From Minisyncoccia bacterium (lineage in GTDB: Bacteria; Patescibacteriota; Minisyncoccia; Phycocordibacterales; PALSA-1337): DNA of 64,000 bases. Of this stretch, positions 3,722 through 63,813 are shown in pieces (within the stretch, counting starts at the first letter, position 1; every line of letters begins with the position of its first letter). Below the pieces are notes generated by a model. It was given only the letters and a program-made list of their open reading frames with translations, had not been told where the DNA came from and searched no databases. Made by a program: the position numbers and the translations under genes. Where the stretch lies: positions 250,495 to 314,494 of the forward strand of contig JBGAUV010000001.1 in assembly GCA_044228445.1 (NCBI GenBank). The letters are read 5' to 3'.

Positions 3722-5250
3722 TTTAGTTAAGAGTTTGATCCTAGCTCAGGATGAACGCTGGCGGCGTGGATAAGGCATGCAAGTCAAACGGCTTAGCACT
3801 GTGCTCGCAAATTAATATTTGTTAGTAGAGTGCTAAGCAGTGGCAGACGAGGTAGTAATAAGCAGGTATCAACCTTCGAGTCAAGAATACCTCATCGAAA
3901 GATGAGTTAATACTTGATAGTCTCGAAAGAGTAAAGATTTATCGCTCGAAGATGAGCCTGTTCAGTATCAGCTAGTTGGTAGGGTAATGGCCTACCAAGG
4001 CTTCGACGCTTAGGGGAGGTGAGAGCCTGACCCCCACCGATGGAACTGAGACACGGTCCATACACCTACGGGTGGCCGCAGTCGAGAATCTTCCGCAATG
4101 GACGAAAGTCTGACGGAGCGACGCCGCGTGGATGATGAAGCACTTCGGTGCGTAAAATCCTTTTGCCAGGGAGAAAGTTTATTGATAGTACTTGGCGAAT
4201 AAGAGGTTGCTAAACTCGTGCCAGCAGCAGCGGTAATACGAGTGCCTCAAGCGTTATCCGGAATCATTGGGCGTAAAGGTTGTGTAGGTGGTTATATTAG
4301 TCTTTTGTTAAATTCTTCGGCTTAACCGGGGGCATGCAGAGGAAACGGTATAACTAGAGGATGCGAGGGGTTTCTGGAACTCATAGTGTAGCGGTAAAAT
4401 GCGTTGATATTATGGGGAACACCAAAAGCGAAGGCATGAAACTAGAGCACTCCTGACACTGAAACAAGAAAGCGTGGGTCGCGAATGGGATTAGATACCC
4501 CAGTAGTCCACGCCCTAAACGATCTTCTCTTGCTTTTCGGAGTATCGACCCTCCGAGAGGCGAAGCTAACGCGTTAAGAGAAGCGCCTGGGTAGTACGAC
4601 CGCAAGGTTAAAACTCAAAGGAATAGACGGGGACTTGCACAAGCGGTGGATCATGTGGCTCAATTCGACGGTAAACGAAGAACCTTACCAGGGTTTGAAA
4701 CCTAGCTGAATACTTTAGGAAACTAGAGTAGTCGCAAGACAGTTAGGCAGGTGATGCATGGCCGTCGTCAGTTCGTGGCTTGAGTTGTTCCCTTCAGTGG
4801 GGTAACGAACGCAACCCTCGTTGTCTGTTATATTTGTCAGGCGAGACTGCCCACGACATAGCGCATAAACTAAGTTTGTGCTCTGCGTCGTGGGAGGAAG
4901 GTGAGGATGACGCCAGGTCAGCATGTCCCTTTGATACCCTGGGCTGCACACGTGATACAATCGTATCTACAACAGGACGCAATACCGATAAAAGGTGGAG
5001 CAAATCCTTAGAAAAGATACGTCAGTTTGGATTGAGGTCTGCAACTCGACCTCATGAAACCGGAATCGCTAGTAATCGCAGATCAGCTATGCTGCGGTGA
5101 ATACGTTCTCAAGTCTTGTACTCACCGCCCGTCAACTCAAGGGAGTTGGGAGTACCCGAAGTCCGCGCTTGTCGCGGCCTAAGGTAAGCTCAATGACAGG
5201 GAGTAAGTCGTAACAAGGCACGGGTAGCGGAAGCTGCTCGTGGATTATTT
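3722..5250 (+). rRNA. rrs: 16S ribosomal RNA, divergent; 3' tail lacks CCUCC
   Basis: AGAGTTTGATCCTAGCTCAG at the 5' end; GTGCCAGCAGCAGCGGTAATAC, ATTAGATACCCCAGTAGTCC and AAGTCGTAACAAGG blocks; helix 45 with GGAA loop, then tail GATTATTTCAA. Confidence 0.9.
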
Positions 5251-5445
5251 CAAATTGAATCTTGATAATCCCTCAGGGATTATCTTACCGAGTCGATTTT
5301 TGTACTTAATTGTACAAACAAGGGATATTGTTCTACTACCTTACAGTGAACACTCAGTCTGCGAGAGAAAAGACAAAGATCGGTGTCCTCTATAGAGACA
5401 CTGATCGGATGAATGGAACAAAATAAAGTACAGTAATATGAAAGA

Positions 5446-5799: not shown

Positions 5800-6486
5800 A
5801 TGAAAATAAAATTTTTCAAAATAATAGTTTTAATAATAGCAATATTGTTCTCAAAACATGCTTTTGCAAAAGAAGTTATATGTCCTGAGGGGTATATTTG
5901 CTTACCAAAAAATGATCCACTTATACTTGCTTCAACAAGTCCTTGTTTTATAGGTTCAAGCATGACAACCTCTTTTAAGGATTTAGATTCAAAAGCTAAA
6001 TCAATAGGTGATAGTATTTCATTTAAATTATTAAATAAGAATAAAGATTACGCTGGTACTTGGGGAGTATTTAAAAGTGGAAGTGGATCAAGTCCTGATT
6101 ACAATAAAGATTGGGGTTTTGAACTAAGTCTAAATCTTTCAAAATTAAAAACCATAAAGTCTATTACAATTATAAACGATGATGGTAATGAAGGTTGGTC
6201 AACTAGTGCGGATGAAAAGTTATTTGGTAAAAAGCCTTATCCTCTTGTTGTTATAGATAAAAATGGAGAGCAATTAAATTATGAATATGAAGATACTATT
6301 TTTATACCAAAAGGTGAAAGTATTTTAAATCTATACGGTCAGATTGAATATAGTGACTTAAGAAATACGGAAATTGTTGTTATTTTCACTGATAATACTT
6401 ATTTGAATAGTAAGATTATTGAAAATGCTTCAACTCAAGCAAATAATAGTCTTTGGGCTAAGTTAAAATCTAAGTTTGGATTTTAA
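5800..6486 (+). CDS. Secreted hypothetical protein with N-terminal signal peptide
   Basis: MKIKFFKIIVLIIAILFSKHAFA followed by a Cys-containing mature region; no family recognised. Confidence 0.55.
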   Translation: MKIKFFKIIVLIIAILFSKHAFAKEVICPEGYICLPKNDPLILASTSPCFIGSSMTTSFKDLDSKAKSIGDSISFKLLNKNKDYAGTWGVFKSGSGSSPDYNKDWGFELSLNLSKLKTIKSITIINDDGNEGWSTSADEKLFGKKPYPLVVIDKNGEQLNYEYEDTIFIPKGESILNLYGQIEYSDLRNTEIVVIFTDNTYLNSKIIENASTQANNSLWAKLKSKFGF

Positions 6487-6591: not shown

Positions 6592-6664
6592 GCGCGTATA
6601 GCTCAGTTGGTAGAGCACACCACTGATACTGGTGGGGTCCCTGGTTCGAGTCCAGGTACGCGCA
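6592..6664 (+). tRNA. tRNA-Ile (anticodon GAU)
   Basis: Cloverleaf: acceptor gcgcgta/tacgcgc, D-arm tagctcagttggtagagca, anticodon loop cuGAUac, T-arm cctggttcgagtccagg; CCA not encoded. Confidence 0.85.
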
Positions 6665-6756
6665 CAAAGTTTTTATATTTCAAAAAATGTGGTAATGTAT
6701 TTGTGGAAAGGAGAAAAAATGACCGCATATACATTCGAAGGAAAAAAATAAAAAAT

Positions 6757-56205: not shown

Positions 56206-59121
56206 ATGAGTATATCAATAAGAAGAGCCGACGGTAGTCTAGCCCCATTTAATGCAGATAAAATAAATCGTTCTATAGAACGTGCATGTATTGGACTTAC
56301 AGATCCAATATCAATGGTTACTCAAATAGCTACAGAAACACAACTTACACTTCATGAAGGTATTACAACTGAAGAAATGGATAAAGCTACAATAAATGCC
56401 GCAGTACAAAATATAAAAGAGGATCCAGAATACGATAAGGTTGCAACTAGATTGCTTTTAAAGACTATATACAGAAAGGTTGTAGGAGAATACGATAAGG
56501 ATGATTATGAAGATTTAAAAAGAAAACATAGAGATGCATTTATAACTTATATAAAACAAGGGGTAAAAAACAAGACTCTTCATTCCAATATGGAAAGTCT
56601 TTTTGATCTTAATGCTTTAGCTGATACTTTAAATATAGATAGAGATGAATTATTCCTATACGCAGGATTAGATGGTTTGGCGCATAGATATATGATAAAA
56701 GATACTAAGGGTAATGTAATTGAAACACCACAGTATTTTTTTATGAGAGTAGCTATGGGTTTGTCTTATGTTGAGAAAAATCCTACAGAATACGCAAAGA
56801 AGTTTTATCATAAAATGTCAAAACATGAATATATCGCTGGAGGTTCAGCAAATCTCGGTGCAGGAACTCCAAGTTCTTCATTATCAAACTGTTTTTTACT
56901 AGAAGTTCATGATGATATGCAACATATAGCAAAGTCTGTATCAGATGTACTTCTACTTTCAAAGAGCTCAGGGGGGTTGGGAGTTTCTATAACAAAGTTA
57001 AGATCTTCCGGTTCACCACTAAAATCAGGTTTTGGAGGAAGTTCAAGCGGTCCTACACCTTTTGCAAAAATAATGGATACATCTATTCGTGCAGTTATGA
57101 GAGGTGGTAAAAAGGTAGGTGCATTGTGTTTCTATATGGAACCATGGCATTTGGATTTTACAGAATTCATAGATTGGAAGAACAATAGCGGAGATGATTA
57201 TGCTCGTATGAGAACAGCAAATACCGCTGTATACATTTCTGATGAATTCATGAAGAGATCTAGAGATGGAAAGGATTGGTATATGTTTGATCCAGCAGAA
57301 ACACCAGATTTAAATGAATTATACGGACAAGCTTTCAGTAAAAGATATATCGAATATGTAGACATGGCTGATAAAGGAATGATGAGAACATTCAAGAAAA
57401 TTCCTGCAAATGAATTATTTAGAAAAATTCTAGTATCAATGCAAACAACATCACATCCTTGGTTAGTTTGGAAAGATACCATAAATCTCCGTGCCTTGAA
57501 TAACAATACAGGAACAATACATATGTCTAATCTATGTACTGAAATATGTTTACCACAGGACAGAGAAAATGTTGCTGTATGTAACCTGGCATCAATAAAC
57601 TTAGCTGCTCACGTAAGCAATAAACAAGTAAACTGGGGAAAGCTAGAAGAAAGTGCAAGACTAGCAGTAAGACAACTCGACAATCTTATCGATATAAACA
57701 TGCTACCTATTCCAGAAGCAGTAAAATCAGATAAAGAAAATAGAGCAATGGGACTAGGGGTAATGGGTTTTGCAGATGTAATAGAAAAACTAGGTATGGC
57801 TTATGACAGTGAACATGCTTGGGATTTTGCAGATAGAATATTTGAATTTGTAAGCTATATGGCTATAGATGAAAGTGCAAATCTAGCTCAAGAAAGAGGT
57901 ATATATAAACATTTTGAAGGATCTATGTGGTCAAAGGGTAAGGTCCCAATAGATTCAATTGAAAATTTAGAAAGAGATAGAGGAATAAAAGTAAGTGTTA
58001 TTAGAGATAGTAAGCATCGTGGTTTAAACTGGAATTTACTTAGAGAAAAAGTTAAAAAAGGAATGAGAAATTCTACTTTAATGGCTGTGGCTCCAAATGC
58101 AAACATTGGTCTTGTTGCAGGTACCACTCCAGGAATAGATGCACGTTTTGCTCAAGTCTTTTCAAGAAATAAAATATCAGGAAAGTATATGGACCTAAAC
58201 CATAACCTAGTAAATGATTTGAAGAACATGGGTATATGGGAAAAAGTGAGAGATCAAATAATTGAAAATCAAGGCGATATTGCACATATAGAAGGAATTC
58301 CACAATATTTGAAGGATATATACAAAACTTCATTTACAACTTCACCTTATGCATATATAGAAGTTGCTGCTAGAGCTCAAAAGTGGGTTGATCAAGCACT
58401 TTCTAGAAATATGTATTTGGAAACAAGAGATCTAGATGAAACTATGGCTATATATGCTACAGCTTGGGAAAAGGGTTTGAAATCAACTTATTATTTACAC
58501 CTAAAACCTCGTCATACAGCAGAACAAAGTACAATAAGAGTAAATAAAGCAGAGAAAATGGGTAAGATAGGCTTTGCTGCTGTAGCAAAAGCAAAAACAG
58601 AGAGCCAATCTCCAATAGAAAAAGAAACAGAAGTAGCTTTCTCTATGCCAAAGCAAACAAGCATACCAGTTTCAAATATAATAGCTAAACCTACCAATAC
58701 CTTTAGCCCTTCAAATACATCTATGTATACTGGAGTACAAAATATTAATTCAAATAAGCCAGTTCAAAAAGATTCTGAACCAGTTGTTTCTATATATAAT
58801 GAACCAACAATATCAAATATAATGTCAGAAGTTCCAGCAAAGGTGCCTGCTATGGTTGGTTTCGGGGCAGTAAAAAAACAAGAAAATATAGAAGTTAAAA
58901 CAGAAGTTAAGAGTCCTCAAATAATAGAAAATGATATAAAACCTCAATTCACAGAAAATAATTTGAACACAAGTTTTACACAAAATAAATATTCAGATAT
59001 ATCATCAATTGGTATGATACAAGCAAAAGAACAAAATGTAGTTCAAAATAAGGTAAAGATGGCTCCCAAGGTTTGTCCAATAGACCCAGCAGAAAGAGCA
59101 CAGTGTGATAGTTGTCAGTAA
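56206..59121 (+). CDS. nrdA: Class I ribonucleoside-diphosphate reductase alpha subunit with ATP-cone and a long low-complexity C-terminal insertion
   Basis: ATP-cone N-terminus; NLCTEICLP catalytic motif; terminal CPIDPAERAQCDSCQ. Confidence 0.9.
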   Translation: MSISIRRADGSLAPFNADKINRSIERACIGLTDPISMVTQIATETQLTLHEGITTEEMDKATINAAVQNIKEDPEYDKVATRLLLKTIYRKVVGEYDKDDYEDLKRKHRDAFITYIKQGVKNKTLHSNMESLFDLNALADTLNIDRDELFLYAGLDGLAHRYMIKDTKGNVIETPQYFFMRVAMGLSYVEKNPTEYAKKFYHKMSKHEYIAGGSANLGAGTPSSSLSNCFLLEVHDDMQHIAKSVSDVLLLSKSSGGLGVSITKLRSSGSPLKSGFGGSSSGPTPFAKIMDTSIRAVMRGGKKVGALCFYMEPWHLDFTEFIDWKNNSGDDYARMRTANTAVYISDEFMKRSRDGKDWYMFDPAETPDLNELYGQAFSKRYIEYVDMADKGMMRTFKKIPANELFRKILVSMQTTSHPWLVWKDTINLRALNNNTGTIHMSNLCTEICLPQDRENVAVCNLASINLAAHVSNKQVNWGKLEESARLAVRQLDNLIDINMLPIPEAVKSDKENRAMGLGVMGFADVIEKLGMAYDSEHAWDFADRIFEFVSYMAIDESANLAQERGIYKHFEGSMWSKGKVPIDSIENLERDRGIKVSVIRDSKHRGLNWNLLREKVKKGMRNSTLMAVAPNANIGLVAGTTPGIDARFAQVFSRNKISGKYMDLNHNLVNDLKNMGIWEKVRDQIIENQGDIAHIEGIPQYLKDIYKTSFTTSPYAYIEVAARAQKWVDQALSRNMYLETRDLDETMAIYATAWEKGLKSTYYLHLKPRHTAEQSTIRVNKAEKMGKIGFAAVAKAKTESQSPIEKETEVAFSMPKQTSIPVSNIIAKPTNTFSPSNTSMYTGVQNINSNKPVQKDSEPVVSIYNEPTISNIMSEVPAKVPAMVGFGAVKKQENIEVKTEVKSPQIIENDIKPQFTENNLNTSFTQNKYSDISSIGMIQAKEQNVVQNKVKMAPKVCPIDPAERAQCDSCQ

Positions 59122-60226: not shown

Positions 60227-60646
60227 ATGTTAGTTGTTAAGACTAAAATTAAAAATAGTGAAATTGAAGGACTAGGTCTATTTGCTGATCAGTTTATACC
60301 TAAAGGTAGTGTAATTTGGAAATATGATCCAAGTTTTGATATTTATTTTGATCCTAAGGAGGTAGAAAAAATGTCAGAACCGCAAAAAGACCTGATAATA
60401 CATTTTGCTTATCTTTCAAAAAAAAGTGGTAAATATGTTTATTCAATAGATAATACAAGATTCACAAATCATTCAAATAAACCAAATACCGTAGAAGATG
60501 AAAATGTTTGTAGTGATGATTTAGAAATATGTACTATTGCTGTTAAGGATATTCAAATAGGGGAGGAAATTACTATTGATTATCGGGTAATTGACGCAGT
60601 GGATGAAGGTAGTAATGAGGAGTATTTGAAGACGGTAGTTCTATAG
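60227..60646 (+). CDS. Small SET-domain protein (putative lysine methyltransferase), co-operonic with nrdAB
   Basis: EIEGLGLFA...NHS..PN...IQIGEEITIDY SET motifs. Confidence 0.6.
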   Translation: MLVVKTKIKNSEIEGLGLFADQFIPKGSVIWKYDPSFDIYFDPKEVEKMSEPQKDLIIHFAYLSKKSGKYVYSIDNTRFTNHSNKPNTVEDENVCSDDLEICTIAVKDIQIGEEITIDYRVIDAVDEGSNEEYLKTVVL

Positions 60647-60748
60647 AGTTTTTATGGTTTAGGAATAAAAGTGGGCTCACCGAAACGAATTTCAGTGAGC
60701 CCAGGGACAACCTTTTTCTCATGTTTCGCTCGCCACTACTTAGATACC

Positions 60749-60921
60749 TAAGATTTAGGCAAAAATTTACCCCACTTACATTTCCGTAAGTGGGGCGTAC
60801 CTAGGAATTTAGGATGACTTGAATCGTCTTGCGACGAATGATCAGAGCCATAAAAACCTAGATATATAAGATACTGACTTCTACATCACAGCAAACTACT
60901 ATAACTTTGTCAAGTGACAAA
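60749..60921 (+). repeat. Direct repeat copy 1, 173 bp, with GC hairpin ccccacttac/gtaagtgggg and palindrome TTTGTCAAGTGACAAA
   Basis: Identical to 62711-62883 except for a single C/T mismatch; similarity continues with an indel for about 40 bp more. Confidence 0.9.
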
Positions 60922-60969
60922 TGTGTGTACCTAAAACAGTGGTCTCATAGAGTTTAAGGTCTAGCTATA

Positions 60970-60998
60970 TTGACATACTAAACTAAATGTGCTATTTT
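60970..60998 (+). promoter_or_regulatory. Promoter-like TTGACA-N17-TATTTT before cassette ORF A
   Basis: Part of the recurring module tagagtttaaggtNtagNta-ttgacata. Confidence 0.4.
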
Positions 60999-61050
60999 TG
61001 TATGTAATAGCACATTTCAACGATTTCAACCCAAAACCATTAGGAGAACC

Positions 61051-61425
61051 ATGAGCAAGCCTTCTTTCACCGTATTTGTTGGCATAAAGGGCGAATTCTC
61101 AGAAGAAGATTACGCCAAACTTCCGTCCGAGCTTCGAAAAGCATACTCGCCGTGTCCTGAATGGGATCTGGGAGAGGAAATCATTATCGACGGATTGGAA
61201 TTTGATTCCTTTGACCTTGGTCGCGATGACACTGCTGATCCGGGAGAATATGTGGGCTTCGGCGTCCATATCTTCGGTCAGTGGTATGACAGCGGAGCTA
61301 CTTGCTTCGCTCTTGATGAGCTTCAAACAATCGAATCTGTTCGTCAGAAGATGACAACTCTCTTCGATCAATGGAAGCTCGATGCCAAAGTCGAAGTGTT
61401 CTGCTTTGCAGGATACAATTCATAA
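61051..61425 (+). CDS. Cassette ORF A: acidic 124-aa hypothetical protein with SD
   Basis: TTAGGAGAACC-ATG; GC-rich codons; net acidic (many D/E). Confidence 0.5.
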   Translation: MSKPSFTVFVGIKGEFSEEDYAKLPSELRKAYSPCPEWDLGEEIIIDGLEFDSFDLGRDDTADPGEYVGFGVHIFGQWYDSGATCFALDELQTIESVRQKMTTLFDQWKLDAKVEVFCFAGYNS

Positions 61426-61692
61426 CCCATCAACTCACTCCAGAAAACCCCTGTCGCGAGATGGTGGGTTTTCTGTTTTATAAAATTCCAATATGTTGAT
61501 ACTAACAGACTTGAACGGCATCCTAAATAGATGTCATTTATTGTTACTTGCTATATAAAAATCTCGTTGATATGTTGTTAGGTAAGACGAGCTTGAAATC
61601 AAAATAAAAACTAGAGCATCTTCTATGGGGAATTCAATCAGTATTTAACTCTGTGAAGACGGTAGTATTATAGAGTTTAAGGTTTAGACTAC

Positions 61693-61720
61693 TTGACATA
61701 TGACCATGTCGTGATATAAT
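61693..61720 (+). promoter_or_regulatory. Near-consensus sigma70 promoter TTGACA-N16-TATAAT before cassette ORF B
   Basis: ttgacatatgaccatgtcgtgatataat. Confidence 0.55.
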
Positions 61721-61779
61721 TTAAAAGGACTAGGATTTTTCCTAATGCTGTCCAGCAAAATCATACTTGGAGGATAGAA

Positions 61780-62139
61780 ATGTACTCTGACGATAAAACT
61801 CTAAAAGAGTTCATGACTGTACTTGTAAGTACAGCTGCGGCTCGGAGAAACTACTTGGATGTCCCTAGCGATTTCATTTTGAGACATCCCTGGACACTGA
61901 AATACCTTTCCAATTTCGCTGAGGCTGACGATTTCATGCAGATCGCGAAAACGGAAGGAGTCCAGATTGTTTGCGAGGATGAACCCAAAAACATTCAAGA
62001 GTTTCGCCGGGACCATGGTCTCAAACCACAGGTTCGCTACAAAGTGTTTGTTCCAGCCGAAACAAAAATCAGAACAAAAGAACAGATCTTCAAGTTCGAA
62101 AGACAAGGAGATGGTTCATATGTTCCACTCAATGGCTGA
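61780..62139 (+). CDS. Cassette ORF B: 119-aa hypothetical protein with SD
   Basis: CTTGGAGGATAGAA-ATG; followed by terminator aaaaccccatct...agatggggtttt. Confidence 0.5.
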   Translation: MYSDDKTLKEFMTVLVSTAAARRNYLDVPSDFILRHPWTLKYLSNFAEADDFMQIAKTEGVQIVCEDEPKNIQEFRRDHGLKPQVRYKVFVPAETKIRTKEQIFKFERQGDGSYVPLNG

Positions 62140-62142
62140 ACC

Positions 62143-62186
62143 AAAACCCCATCTACGCTTTCATGAGAAGATGGGGTTTTGTCTTT
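62143..62186 (+). terminator. Rho-independent terminator after ORF B
   Basis: Stem ccccatct/agatgggg followed by ttttgtctttt. Confidence 0.55.
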
Positions 62187-62522
62187 TAGAAGATGGTGGT
62201 TTAATGTAGTTTAAAATTTAGATAAAAGAAAGCCGGCCAAACCTTATGGGTCTGGCCGGGAAAGTGATGGGTATGCGCCCATCTGCGGATCATTTACGAT
62301 CATTTTGCCAGTAAAATAAGGTTATTTCTGGTTACGTATCCCTGGTATTGTGTCCAGACACGTAACTTATGAATACTAACCTTATTCTTTTACCATCATA
62401 GCAAATTACTATAACTTTGTCAAGTATTCAAAGATGTCGGTGTTATGGAGTTCAAGTTCTAACCTCTATTGATATAATTAATCTAGAGTGTTAATCTTCT
62501 TTTTAAGAAAGGAGAGTACATC

Positions 62523-62720
62523 ATGATCAAAATTACTGTCCGTAAAGAAGGAGAGAGAACCTTTGCGGCCTATGTGGACGATGAAAATATGCGGCGCATA
62601 GGTGAGTCTCGAGGAGAAGCTGTTGGCAAAGTCGTATCTGATCTCATTGAACAAAGGTCAGTACGGTTGGAAGATTGTCAAGTGCATCAAATCGAGATTA
62701 AACAAAAATATAAGATTTAG
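62523..62720 (+). CDS. Cassette ORF C: 65-aa protein resembling HicB/UPF0150-type antitoxin N-domain
   Basis: ITVRKEGERTFAAYVDD...GESRGEAVGKV resembles the HicB-like pattern; SD AAAGGAGAG; stop codon lies inside repeat copy 2. Confidence 0.4.
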   Translation: MIKITVRKEGERTFAAYVDDENMRRIGESRGEAVGKVVSDLIEQRSVRLEDCQVHQIEIKQKYKI

Positions 62721-62883
62721 GCAAAAATTTACCCCACTTACATTTCCGTAAGTGGGGCGTACCTAGGAATTTAGGATGACTTGAATCGTCTTGCGACGAA
62801 TGATCAGAGCCATAAAAACCTAGATATATAAGATACTGACTTCTACATCATAGCAAACTACTATAACTTTGTCAAGTGACAAA
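62711..62883 (+). repeat. Direct repeat copy 2 (173 bp)
   Basis: See copy 1; offset exactly 1962 bp. Confidence 0.9.
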
Positions 62884-62981
62884 GATAGTGGTCTCATCGG
62901 GTTTAAAATAACCAGTATTTACAATTTGTATAATTTAGTATATAAAAAATGTAGACTTAATTTAACACTGAAAGGTGCATC

Positions 62982-63200
62982 ATGAGTATTCTAAGAGAAT
63001 TCCGTAACGCCAGCCCAAGTGAAAAAGACCCTGCAAAACTTATTTTATTCACAGTATTTGCTGACCTTAATGCTCGGCACGGCTTCGGGGATTTCTGGAG
63101 CGGTATTAACAATGATATAAAAGAAGAAATTTTGAAAACAAATCTCGAAAAGATAAGAGAAATACTGAAGAAAAAGACTCAAACCAAAAACAAAGATTGA
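62982..63200 (+). CDS. Cassette ORF D: 72-aa hypothetical protein
   Basis: AAAGGTG before ATG; extended -10 TGTATAAT upstream; terminator hairpin at 63224-63268. Confidence 0.4.
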   Translation: MSILREFRNASPSEKDPAKLILFTVFADLNARHGFGDFWSGINNDIKEEILKTNLEKIREILKKKTQTKNKD

Positions 63201-63336
63201 AAAAAAGTGACTGAATCAATCCAGGCCTCGTGTATATACATAAAAGTAAACACGAGGCTTTGAATTTTATATATCACACTTATATTTTAATAAATAACCA
63301 TTTGCCATAATATATTAAGATATGGTATAATTATTA

Positions 63337-63672
63337 GGTACCAGACAGTTGCTATGATACGAAAGTATCGTAGAGGAAAGTCCGAACATTGGCCTGACGC
63401 AAGTTAGGCAGAAAGGTAGCGGGTAACGCCCGTCAGTCGAAGGACTAGAGGTGCGAACAGAGACGTCTTTATTGGAAACGATAAAGAGACCCTTCGGGGT
63501 TAGCTTGTATAGAAATATATGAGGTGCAACGGCAAAATCCTTACCCCAATGCAAGGCCGTGCTTTATAGGAAACTATAAAGAGTGCCGCTTGAGGTTAAT
63601 TGCAAAATTAATCCCAGATAAATGACTGTCGTTCGTTTTTAACGAATACAGAATTCGGCTTACAGGTACAAT
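63337..63672 (+). ncRNA. rnpB: RNase P RNA (bacterial type A)
   Basis: CR-I AGAGGAAAGTCCG; CR-II AAAGGTAGCGGGTAACGCCCGTCAG; CR-IV ACAGAATTCGGCTTAC; P1 pairing ggtacc/ggtac; extended -10 TGGTATAAT just upstream. Confidence 0.75.
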
Positions 63673-63813
63673 ATGAAAAAACTCTCCTTAGCGGTGAGTT
63701 TTTTCATTTATATAGCCAAAAAATACAACATATTATCAACAAAATTAACCTATTTTCGGGTGTATTTATCTGGTATAATCAAATTATATAAATTATATTT
63801 AAAATAGAAAAAA

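Follow-up and report, generated by a model that had tools for sequence, protein, structure and literature searches.

The described systems closest to the locus reported here are integrons, the accretion of cis-mobilizable elements (CIMEs) with integrative and conjugative elements (ICEs), the integrative mobile elements exploiting Xer (IMEX) with the related pdif modules of Acinetobacter plasmids, and the promoter early stem-loop (PeSL) elements of T4-type phages. An integron has a Xer-related recombinase next to a primary site, followed by single-gene cassettes in a unidirectional array with sites in direct orientation. The recombinase is of the IntI type and has an IntI-specific extra domain. 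The attC sites of an integron are imperfect palindromes in which structure rather than sequence is conserved, and its cassettes are mostly promoterless, depend on a promoter of the platform and come from a pool shared across hosts. In CIME/ICE accretion (e.g. ICESt1/CIME at fda in Streptococcus thermophilus), att sites duplicate the 3' end of a target gene, whose frame they restore, tandem arrays form in direct orientation, and members without a recombinase rely on one acting in trans. IMEX/pdif modules are short, lack a recombinase, assort as mosaics and have Xer-type sites of ~28 nucleotides (nt); pdif sites alternate on plasmids, and dif consists of two inverted 11-nt arms around a 6-nt spacer. 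PeSL elements lie in a hyperplastic region where regulatory sequences are repeated; each of their small open reading frames (ORFs), of unknown function, comes with a promoter and a terminator. Bacteria of the candidate phyla radiation (CPR) have tiny genomes that are usually described as poor in mobile elements, and in the literature we found no description of such arrays in CPR. Here we analyse a 64-kb stretch of contig JBGAUV010000001.1 (the window), in which positions 60227-63265 probably comprise a series of eight or more miniature mobile cassettes, accreted via a recombinase acting at a 33-nt motif, M, that mimics the end of the housekeeping gene ychF.

A 33-nt motif delimits the modules of the array

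The array lies between nrdB and the RNase P RNA gene, rnpB, and its cassettes follow head to tail in the order SET, A, B, ORF1 (with element T), ORF2, E, ORF3, B' and ORF4. M (GAAGATGGTGGTnnnATAGAGTTTAAGATTTAG) reads as the last ten codons and the stop of ychF (GAA GAT GGT GGT CTC ATA GAG TTT AAG ATT TAG, translated as EDGGLIEFKI*). A position weight matrix (PWM) of M was run over the whole 64 kb and yielded six scoring sites, all inside 60628-62913 and all on the plus strand: M0 (60628-60660, score 18.1), M2 (60932-60964, 34.5), M3 (61655-61687, 43.9), M4 (62189-62221, 37.6), M5 (62430-62462, 30.8) and M7 (62881-62913, 24.9). M3 is the best-preserved copy and reads EDGSIIEFKV*. M0 is mutated in its 3' half and reads EDGSSIEF in frame 0, M4 has an internal stop, and M7 is degenerate and has lost the in-frame stop. 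A preliminary description of this DNA had pointed out that the 3' end of SET is repeated downstream; positions 60627-60651 indeed recur at 61654-61678, with a weaker copy at 62188, and ACTATAACTTTGTCAAGT has three exact occurrences against 0.17 expected, in the island only.

On short metagenome contigs (99.9% identity to the window), ORF1 and ORF2 recur exactly, and two junctions are longer by 45 and 79 bases, both extra segments ending in AAAGATGGTGGTCTCAYAGAGTTTAAG followed by ATTTAGG. Relative to these metagenome haplotypes, the window has lost two copies of the motif, M1 and M6, and both deletions end at the same position of M, between GAGTT and TAAGAT, which could be a cleavage site or local microhomology. 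Once M1 and M6 are restored from the metagenome variants, all module boundaries carry M, in direct orientation.

M occurs at ychF and at other loci in many genomes

Further M loci (numbered with the prefix L) were identified by an exact-pattern scan of metagenome and viral contigs, and were then re-scored by PWM and searched with tblastn. The exact-pattern scan detected M in 59 metagenome loci and in none of the viral contigs, from which module A was likewise absent. In ~28 of the 59 loci, a ychF gene ending KEY[IV]VKDGDV.EF[KR][IV]* is followed by one to four copies of M in the same orientation. Copies are spaced 137-1223 nt apart and are in direct orientation throughout. Where the contig is long enough, the usual downstream neighbour of ychF comes next after the array; in several loci this neighbour is a NUDIX gene. 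L109 has six copies of M between rnc and smc, and the same interval holds an ORF1 homologue in L091 and L092. M was thus found at ychF, in the recombinase block described below, between rnc and smc, and between nrdB and rnpB.

We compared base conservation in 69-70 distinct cassette copies of M with that in 18 real ychF ends. M fixes the wobble positions of ychF (GGT is 95% T, and ATA and GAG are invariant) and has a variable central triplet. Its consensus, EDGG[VAL]IEFKI*, differs from the native KDGDV.EF[KR][IV]* by a consistent change of GAT to GGT (D to G). Since positions that vary as wobble in real ychF ends are fixed in M, the constraint acts on the DNA, and M is a DNA-level site, more than a relic of coding sequence. 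The in-frame stop is kept in 52/69 copies as TAG, TAA or TGA, and a second stop, in the +1 frame (the TAG of ATAGAG), is present in 55/69. Genes that end at this second stop are the SET gene of the window (...LKTVVL*), the SET gene of L145 (...KKMVV*) and NUDIX genes (...KMVVS*). The genes that end inside M and the retention of stops both fit a division in which each half of M moves with its adjoining unit, the 5' half with the left-hand one and the 3' half, needed to complete ychF after an insertion, with the right-hand one.

The central triplet was also considered as an overlap that has to match between neighbouring sites; adjacent sites share the triplet in 4/43 cases compared to 14.5% expected, and this role was rejected.

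The arrays have a G+C content of 0.36-0.44 (~40%) whatever the G+C of the host (0.30-0.54). Promoters are enriched in the cassettes: matches of at least 11/12 to the promoter consensus were found in 10/43 compared to 1.6% of shuffles, and matches of at least 10/12 in 17/43 cassettes elsewhere compared to 13.6% of shuffles.

A Xer-like recombinase gene adjoins M

At 13 loci, a gene for a 305-aa tyrosine recombinase ends ~350 nt upstream of M. These recombinases share ~90% amino acid identity (70-80% in DNA), lack an arm-binding domain and are Xer-like, with XerA, XerC and XerD as the best NCBIfam models (113-129 bits, all under cut-off). The integron-integrase models TIGR02249 and NF011946 gave 56 bits (cut-off 265) and 26 bits (cut-off 435). 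The enzyme is part of a CPR-wide family with 341 matches at 53-60% identity, and its only match among annotated phages is 24% identical. It is encoded in a conserved 3.1-kb block with the order TrpR-like gene, phosphoribosyltransferase (PRTase)-like gene, structured leader of ~300 nt, recombinase, 46-aa basic protein, promoter with hairpin non-coding RNA (ncRNA), and M. Pairwise homology among the recombinase loci ends at the last bases of M, and L088 and L147 have identical recombinases followed by different first cassettes. Neither the left edge of the 3.1-kb block nor the nrdB-SET junction contains a convincing M or M-like core. The absence of an integrase noted in the preliminary description applies to the window itself; elsewhere, a dedicated-looking recombinase is linked to the same motif.

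Near the end of a 35.6-kb predicted viral contig (L156 5001-6434; IMG/VR UViG_3300049489_000672), we found a recombinase gene (74% identity in the product) and a small gene, followed by a degenerate M at 6306-6338. The sequence after this M resembles the post-M sequence of L147, and a second integrase is encoded at 958-1788; the 6.4 kb read contained no clear phage genes. Because the contig carries both the related recombinase and a degenerate M, this clade of recombinases may also ride on larger mobile elements.

The 3.1-kb block contains two structured RNA elements. The leader upstream of the recombinase (L088 8240-8615; also L094, L098, L099, L110, L122, L137 and L150) is ~300-380 nt long, with its own promoter TTGACAATAG and apparent compensatory changes, and has no match in Rfam. 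Between the gene for the 46-aa protein and M (L088 9720-9883 and eight other loci) are a promoter, a conserved hairpin ncRNA in which two base pairs covary, and a terminator. Element T in the window (61546-61654, plus strand) is a truncated copy of this second element; it is a noncoding remnant homologous to the promoter and the 5' part of the ncRNA that precede M in the recombinase block. No Rfam family matched the RNAs of the block or cassettes A, B and E.

More distant recombinase homologues (54-59% identity) are located at the edges of two islands, L154 1-9600 and L152 1-17600. The former includes genes for a type I restriction-modification (R-M) system, a Fic protein and an SMC-like ATPase, and the latter genes for a relaxase, a transposase, HEPN/NTase proteins and a serine recombinase. 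Neither island has an M site or similar repeat-bounded arrays beside the recombinase homologue.

Organisation and distribution of the cassettes

A gap of 2 nt separates nrdB from the SET-domain gene (60227-60646, plus strand; Pfam SET, E = 9e-16), which finishes within M0: the +1 frame of M0 contains the final six codons and the stop. The G+C content of SET at third codon positions (GC3) is native-like, at 0.171. SET cassettes also occur in ychF arrays. In L145, which is from the same sample as the window's lineage, a homologue with 39% identity is the first cassette after ychF and ends in M in the same frame, and a second homologue (32% identity) is present in L133/L119. SET is itself a cassette gene.

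The four small ORFs of the preliminary description (124, 119, 65 and 72 codons) were recovered, all on the plus strand and each with a promoter-like site of its own. The ORF1 cassette (60965-61484) has a promoter at 60970-60998 (10/12), a Shine-Dalgarno (SD) sequence AGGAGA, the ORF at 61051-61425 (124 aa, pI 4.2) and a terminator at ~61440-61471. The ORF2 cassette (61688-62188) has a promoter at 61693-61720 (12/12, TG), SD GGAGGA, the ORF at 61780-62139 (119 aa) and a terminator at ~62145-62181. The promoter-like sites of the other two were recognised by direct reading of the sequence. The ORF3 cassette (62463-62710) has an extended -10 box, TGATATAAT, at 62470-62478, SD AAGGAGA and the ORF at 62523-62720; a 79-nt deletion in the window has removed its own terminator together with M6, so that the C-terminus ...IKQK* becomes ...IKQKYKI*. 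The ORF4 cassette (62914-63265) has TTTACA-17-TATAAA at 62918-62946, the ORF at 62982-63200 (72 aa, pI 9.4) and a terminator at 63220-63263, and is present in both haplotypes described below, L144 included. A strong SD had been claimed for every ORF; it is present for ORF1-3 (GGAG/AGGA-type), but ORF4 has a weak one, AAAGGTG only.

The remaining modules are on the minus strand. Module A (60661-60748) is a conserved hairpin cassette with a terminator at 60703-60672 and a fold z-score of -3.6, and is probably a short minus-strand RNA ending in that terminator. Cassette B is the 173-nt direct repeat of the preliminary description, whose copies at 60749-60921 and 62711-62883 are spaced 1962 nt apart and differ by a single mismatch. 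The repeat had been taken as the boundary of the island; it is actually one cassette in two copies. Copy 1 has a terminator at 60796-60769 and the -10 box TGTGAT, in which the mismatch between the copies lies, and M1, which precedes it in the metagenome variants, is deleted in the window. Copy 2 has a promoter at 62875 to 62847 (11/12) and a terminator at 62758 to 62731. Cassette E (62222-62429) has a promoter at 62423 to 62395 (11/12, TG), a terminator at 62259 to 62233 and a fold z-score of -4.6. The recurring short motifs described earlier are confined to the island and far above chance. However, the module catcaYagcaaa...ttgtcaagt does not stand in front of the ORFs, as had been thought, but is a minus-strand promoter (TTGACA-17-TATGAT) paired with the terminators of both B copies and of E. 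Because minus-strand promoters pair in this way with minus-strand terminators, B and E look like genes for structured small RNAs on the opposite strand. Cassette B, with a fold z-score of -7.2 for the minus strand compared to -4.65 for the plus strand, is a duplicated cassette that probably encodes a small RNA of ~119 nt, and cassette E looks like a candidate for one of ~165 nt. The cassettes appear to be of three kinds: self-expressed units with a sigma-70 promoter, SD and terminator; promoterless genes transcribed by read-through from the upstream gene; and putative opposite-strand structured small RNAs.

Several cassettes of the window were found at other M loci. The ORF1 cassette, with promoter, ORF and terminator, is ~80% identical in L088 (9891-10427), and the homology extends exactly from M to M. 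Module A is 95% identical over 86 nt in the recombinase-linked L096 and 84% identical in the ychF-linked L111/L124, with compensatory changes in the stem. Element T is 87% identical over 105 nt in L133/L119 and occurs also in L104, L107 and L103, always just 5' of M. ORF3 is one of a small four-member family found in other arrays.

Little of the cargo can be recognised. Among 26 cassette proteins, there are two SET proteins and one each of NUDIX, NTP_transf_6, cytidine deaminase, DUF7660 and PsbP_2, and 19/26 have no Pfam match; no transfer genes are present in the identifiable cargo. The ORF1 family comprises 21 clusters among 1.84 billion representatives. AlphaFold2 (AF2) models of ORF1 and ORF2, with pLDDT values of 80 and 87.5, had no informative fold neighbour. 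The preliminary description had called one of the proteins HicB-like, a reading that for ORF3 is without sequence support: neither ORF3 nor its three relatives match Pfam, no PDB profile matched with E below 0.1, and there is no partner ORF (no HicA).

The window copy is a polymorphic insertion

In close relatives, nrdB is followed by the rnpB promoter (L008, 58 nt from nrdB to rnpB) or by one unrelated surface-protein gene (L009, L011), and SET and the cassettes are absent from the side of nrdB in all those examined. Since the close relatives lack SET and cassettes next to nrdB, 60227 to ~63295 is a lineage-specific insertion of 3.07 kb in a variable spacer. The preliminary description had proposed insertion at a stable-RNA gene. 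We find instead that the site motif mimics the 3' end of ychF and that most arrays are at ychF; with the nrdB-rnpB spacer variable in relatives, adjacency to rnpB is probably incidental, and rnpB is probably not a target. The proposal of a modular, recombining cassette array that is lineage-specific and foreign in composition is borne out.

Cassette number also varies. In metagenome sample ERZ724505, L144 has the arrangement nrdB-SET-A-M1-B-M7-ORF4-rnpB, without the ORF1-ORF2-E-ORF3 block that is carried by L129. Because the two haplotypes coexist in one sample, the array of the window is polymorphic. The window copy is ectopic and decaying, with two copies of M deleted and several degenerate, and is still polymorphic in the population.

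The nrdB-rnpB spacer is a hot spot for variable genes independent of M cassettes. The genes found there encode secreted or surface proteins of 329 aa (L009 11020-12009) and 1363 aa (L011 10988-15079) that share a homologous domain. In another CPR metagenome-assembled genome (MAG), a group I intron (L085 12524-12903; Rfam, 59.9 bits) lies ~1.5 kb downstream of nrdB. A low-coverage metagenome contig, L001, diverges in its first 61 nt from the window inside SET, upstream of 60499, and contains GGAAGACGGTA reversed in this segment, which could be another junction or a chimera.

The host lacks an anti-SD sequence

NrdB is 90-91% identical to NrdB from Patescibacteria/Paceibacteria-type MAGs, which identifies the host as a CPR bacterium. 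The window has a G+C content of ~27%, and the GC3 of native genes is 0.153±0.026. ORF1-4 have GC3 values of 0.46, 0.44, 0.36 and 0.34, 7-12 standard deviations above the native mean, in agreement with the foreign composition ascribed to the island. The claims that native genes have no SD and that the 16S RNA has no anti-SD were also confirmed: an SD-like 4-mer is present upstream of just 4/48 native ORFs, and the 3' terminus of the 16S gene (3723-5255) is GGATTATTTC rather than GGATCACCTCC, with no CCTCC. As the anti-SD has been lost, the SD-led cassettes must be translated by ribosomes unable to pair with their SD.

Cassette accretion and alternative explanations

The best reading of these results is site-specific, recombinase-driven accretion of cassettes. 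In this process, the recombinase, supplied from another place in the genome or from a helper element, would recombine M with M. Circular cassettes with a single M would insert at the end of ychF or at any existing M, and could be excised or reshuffled in the same way. The 5' half of M would travel with the left cassette, which would account for SET, NUDIX and ychF ending inside M, and the 3' half would travel with the right cassette, supplying a correct C-terminus and stop to ychF on landing there. Polymorphisms segregate with the right-hand partner from position ~27 on (L088 compared to L147, and L137 compared to L098), and the crossover would therefore lie in or near ATAGAGTTTAA.

Several observations weigh against such accretion. 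Read by eye, the logo of M shows no obvious inverted-repeat symmetry such as dif, loxP and attC cores have, and no circular intermediate was seen. The window has no recombinase gene within its 64 kb, and the recombinase and a ychF array never occur on the same contig, so that enzyme and site are linked by adjacency alone. The ORF1 homologue of L089 is inverted relative to M. At the window locus, the difference between L144 and L129 is explained equally well by recombination of M1 with M6 and by homologous recombination of B with B', which would give the same product. M is missing from the left end of the array (nrdB-SET), so this array did not arrive there by simple M x M integration.

Shuffling without a dedicated recombinase, either RecA-dependent or by microhomology between repeated regulatory sequences (promoters, terminators and the 173-nt repeat) as in PeSL elements, would fit the promoter-proximal repeats of up to 45 nt and 76% identity, the 173-nt repeat that flanks exactly the block missing from L144, and the window-specific deletions that end in microhomology (TAAGAT). 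We nevertheless consider it unlikely, since M is conserved over 33 nt, wobble positions included, among genomes that are otherwise 70-80% identical or unrelated, is always in direct orientation, and borders a conserved recombinase block, homology breaking off exactly at M. An IMEX-like arrangement, with M as the chromosomal dif, the recombinase as the housekeeping Xer and the cassettes as integrase-less exploiters, is quite unlikely. The Xer-like enzyme and the breadth of its family, the length of M, which matches that of a dif site, the lack of a recombinase in the cassettes and the position of M beside the recombinase gene all speak for it, and difSL likewise adjoins xerS. However, GC skew keeps its sign across the array in 7/7 long loci and in the window, so that M is not at the replication terminus, and M as dif was rejected on this ground. 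Moreover, M overlaps the coding sequence of ychF, lacks two inverted arms, is found at several types of locus and is missing near the recombinase homologues with 54-59% identity.

The preliminary description favoured a functional reading, in which the island is an anti-defence island or an orphan immunity/antitoxin array, HicB-like in part and targeted to rnpB. In its favour are the small size of the proteins and their location on mobile DNA, the acidity of ORF1, the recurrence of ORF3-like proteins in arrays and, in L154, the R-M and defence genes beside recombinase homologues. In contrast, ORF1-4 gave no matches in PADLOC, PHROG, Pfam or NCBIfam, HicB had no PDB profile match, ORF1 and ORF2 had no fold matches, the cargo that can be identified elsewhere consists of metabolic or miscellaneous proteins (SET, NUDIX, NTP_transf_6, deaminase), and the prevalence of arrays at ychF argues that rnpB is not the target. 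We therefore regard this reading as very unlikely, the anti-defence and antitoxin assignments being unsupported rather than disproved. The least probable explanation, to which we give hardly any weight, is an assembly artefact in which a small circular element or repeats were collapsed or mis-joined into the chromosome. The 1962-nt spacing of the repeat, the short metagenome contigs that break inside it and the mismatch of the first 61 nt of L001 would agree with this, but independent assemblies reproduce nrdB-SET-A-B (L144; L001 from within SET), B-ORF1-ORF2-E-ORF3-B' (L129) and B'-ORF4-rnpB (L144), at 99.5-100% identity, with two clean indels as the only exceptions.

Relationship to known systems

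Recombinase-driven accretion at M resembles integrons, CIME accretion and IMEX arrays, and is a member of none of these classes. As in integrons, a Xer-related recombinase stands next to a primary site and is followed by single-gene cassettes in a unidirectional, directly oriented array; different hosts draw on one cassette pool, and platforms that are otherwise identical can differ in their first cassette (L088 and L147). Unlike attC, M is conserved in sequence over 69 copies, and when the island was scanned for inverted repeats, the boundaries showed no palindrome. The M-linked recombinase is well below the cut-offs of the IntI models and is co-oriented with the array. Furthermore, ORF1-4 have their own promoters, many cassettes have both promoter and terminator, some are candidate small RNAs, and a housekeeping gene offers the main landing site, at its 3' end.

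As in CIME/ICE accretion, the site copies the 3' end of a target gene and would restore its frame, the arrays are tandem and direct, and members without a recombinase would depend on one in trans. ychF is also a prophage integration target in pneumococcus (PMC6375853). However, the units here are 0.14-1.2 kb, usually of a single gene, rather than decayed ICEs on the kilobase scale, and have no transfer remnants. The consensus of M is common to many genera, differs from the local ychF end (D to G) and is found at non-ychF loci as well. Short recombinase-less modules in mosaic assortment are shared with IMEX and pdif, but the M arrays are off the replication terminus, and M is always direct, overlaps coding sequence and has chromosomal flanks. 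Compared by eye on the logo, the arms of M, AAGATGGTGGT and ATAGAGTTTAA, do not form an inverted pair, in contrast to those of dif. PeSL elements share with the array the small ORFs with their own promoter and terminator and the repeated regulatory sequences; here, the units are set off by a distinct, non-regulatory, recombinase-linked site, and they reside in a bacterial chromosome.

More tentatively, CPR bacteria may possess a gene-capture system of their own, analogous to integrons but independent of them. It would consist of a dedicated Xer-like recombinase in its 3.1-kb block with two structured RNAs, the 33-bp site, and a shared pool of sub-kilobase, self-expressed cassettes, some of them small-RNA genes, that spreads across genera and can seed new loci such as that of the window. 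We see this broader proposal as a real possibility, at slightly less than even odds. A site-specific cassette system, if true, would be a concrete route of gene flow between CPR lineages, and the 33-nt signature, with dozens of environmental instances, could be used to mine the CPR pool of accessory genes and small RNAs. The same stretch of DNA could serve both as a recombination site and as the coding end of an essential gene, with stops in two frames. SD-led cassettes in a host without an anti-SD offer a natural experiment on whether horizontal transfer is restricted by translation signals.

Other features of the window

The class-A RNase P RNA gene, rnpB, is at 63333-63678. Downstream of the 16S gene are an ORF of 228 aa (5800-6486) and then tRNA-Ile (6592-6665). 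An Rfam scan of the remaining 57 kb of the window detected neither a 23S nor a 5S gene, and the rRNA operon accordingly appears split. The NrdA ORF (56206-59121) encodes 971 aa and has a low-complexity insertion of ~250 aa ahead of its C-terminal CxxC tail.

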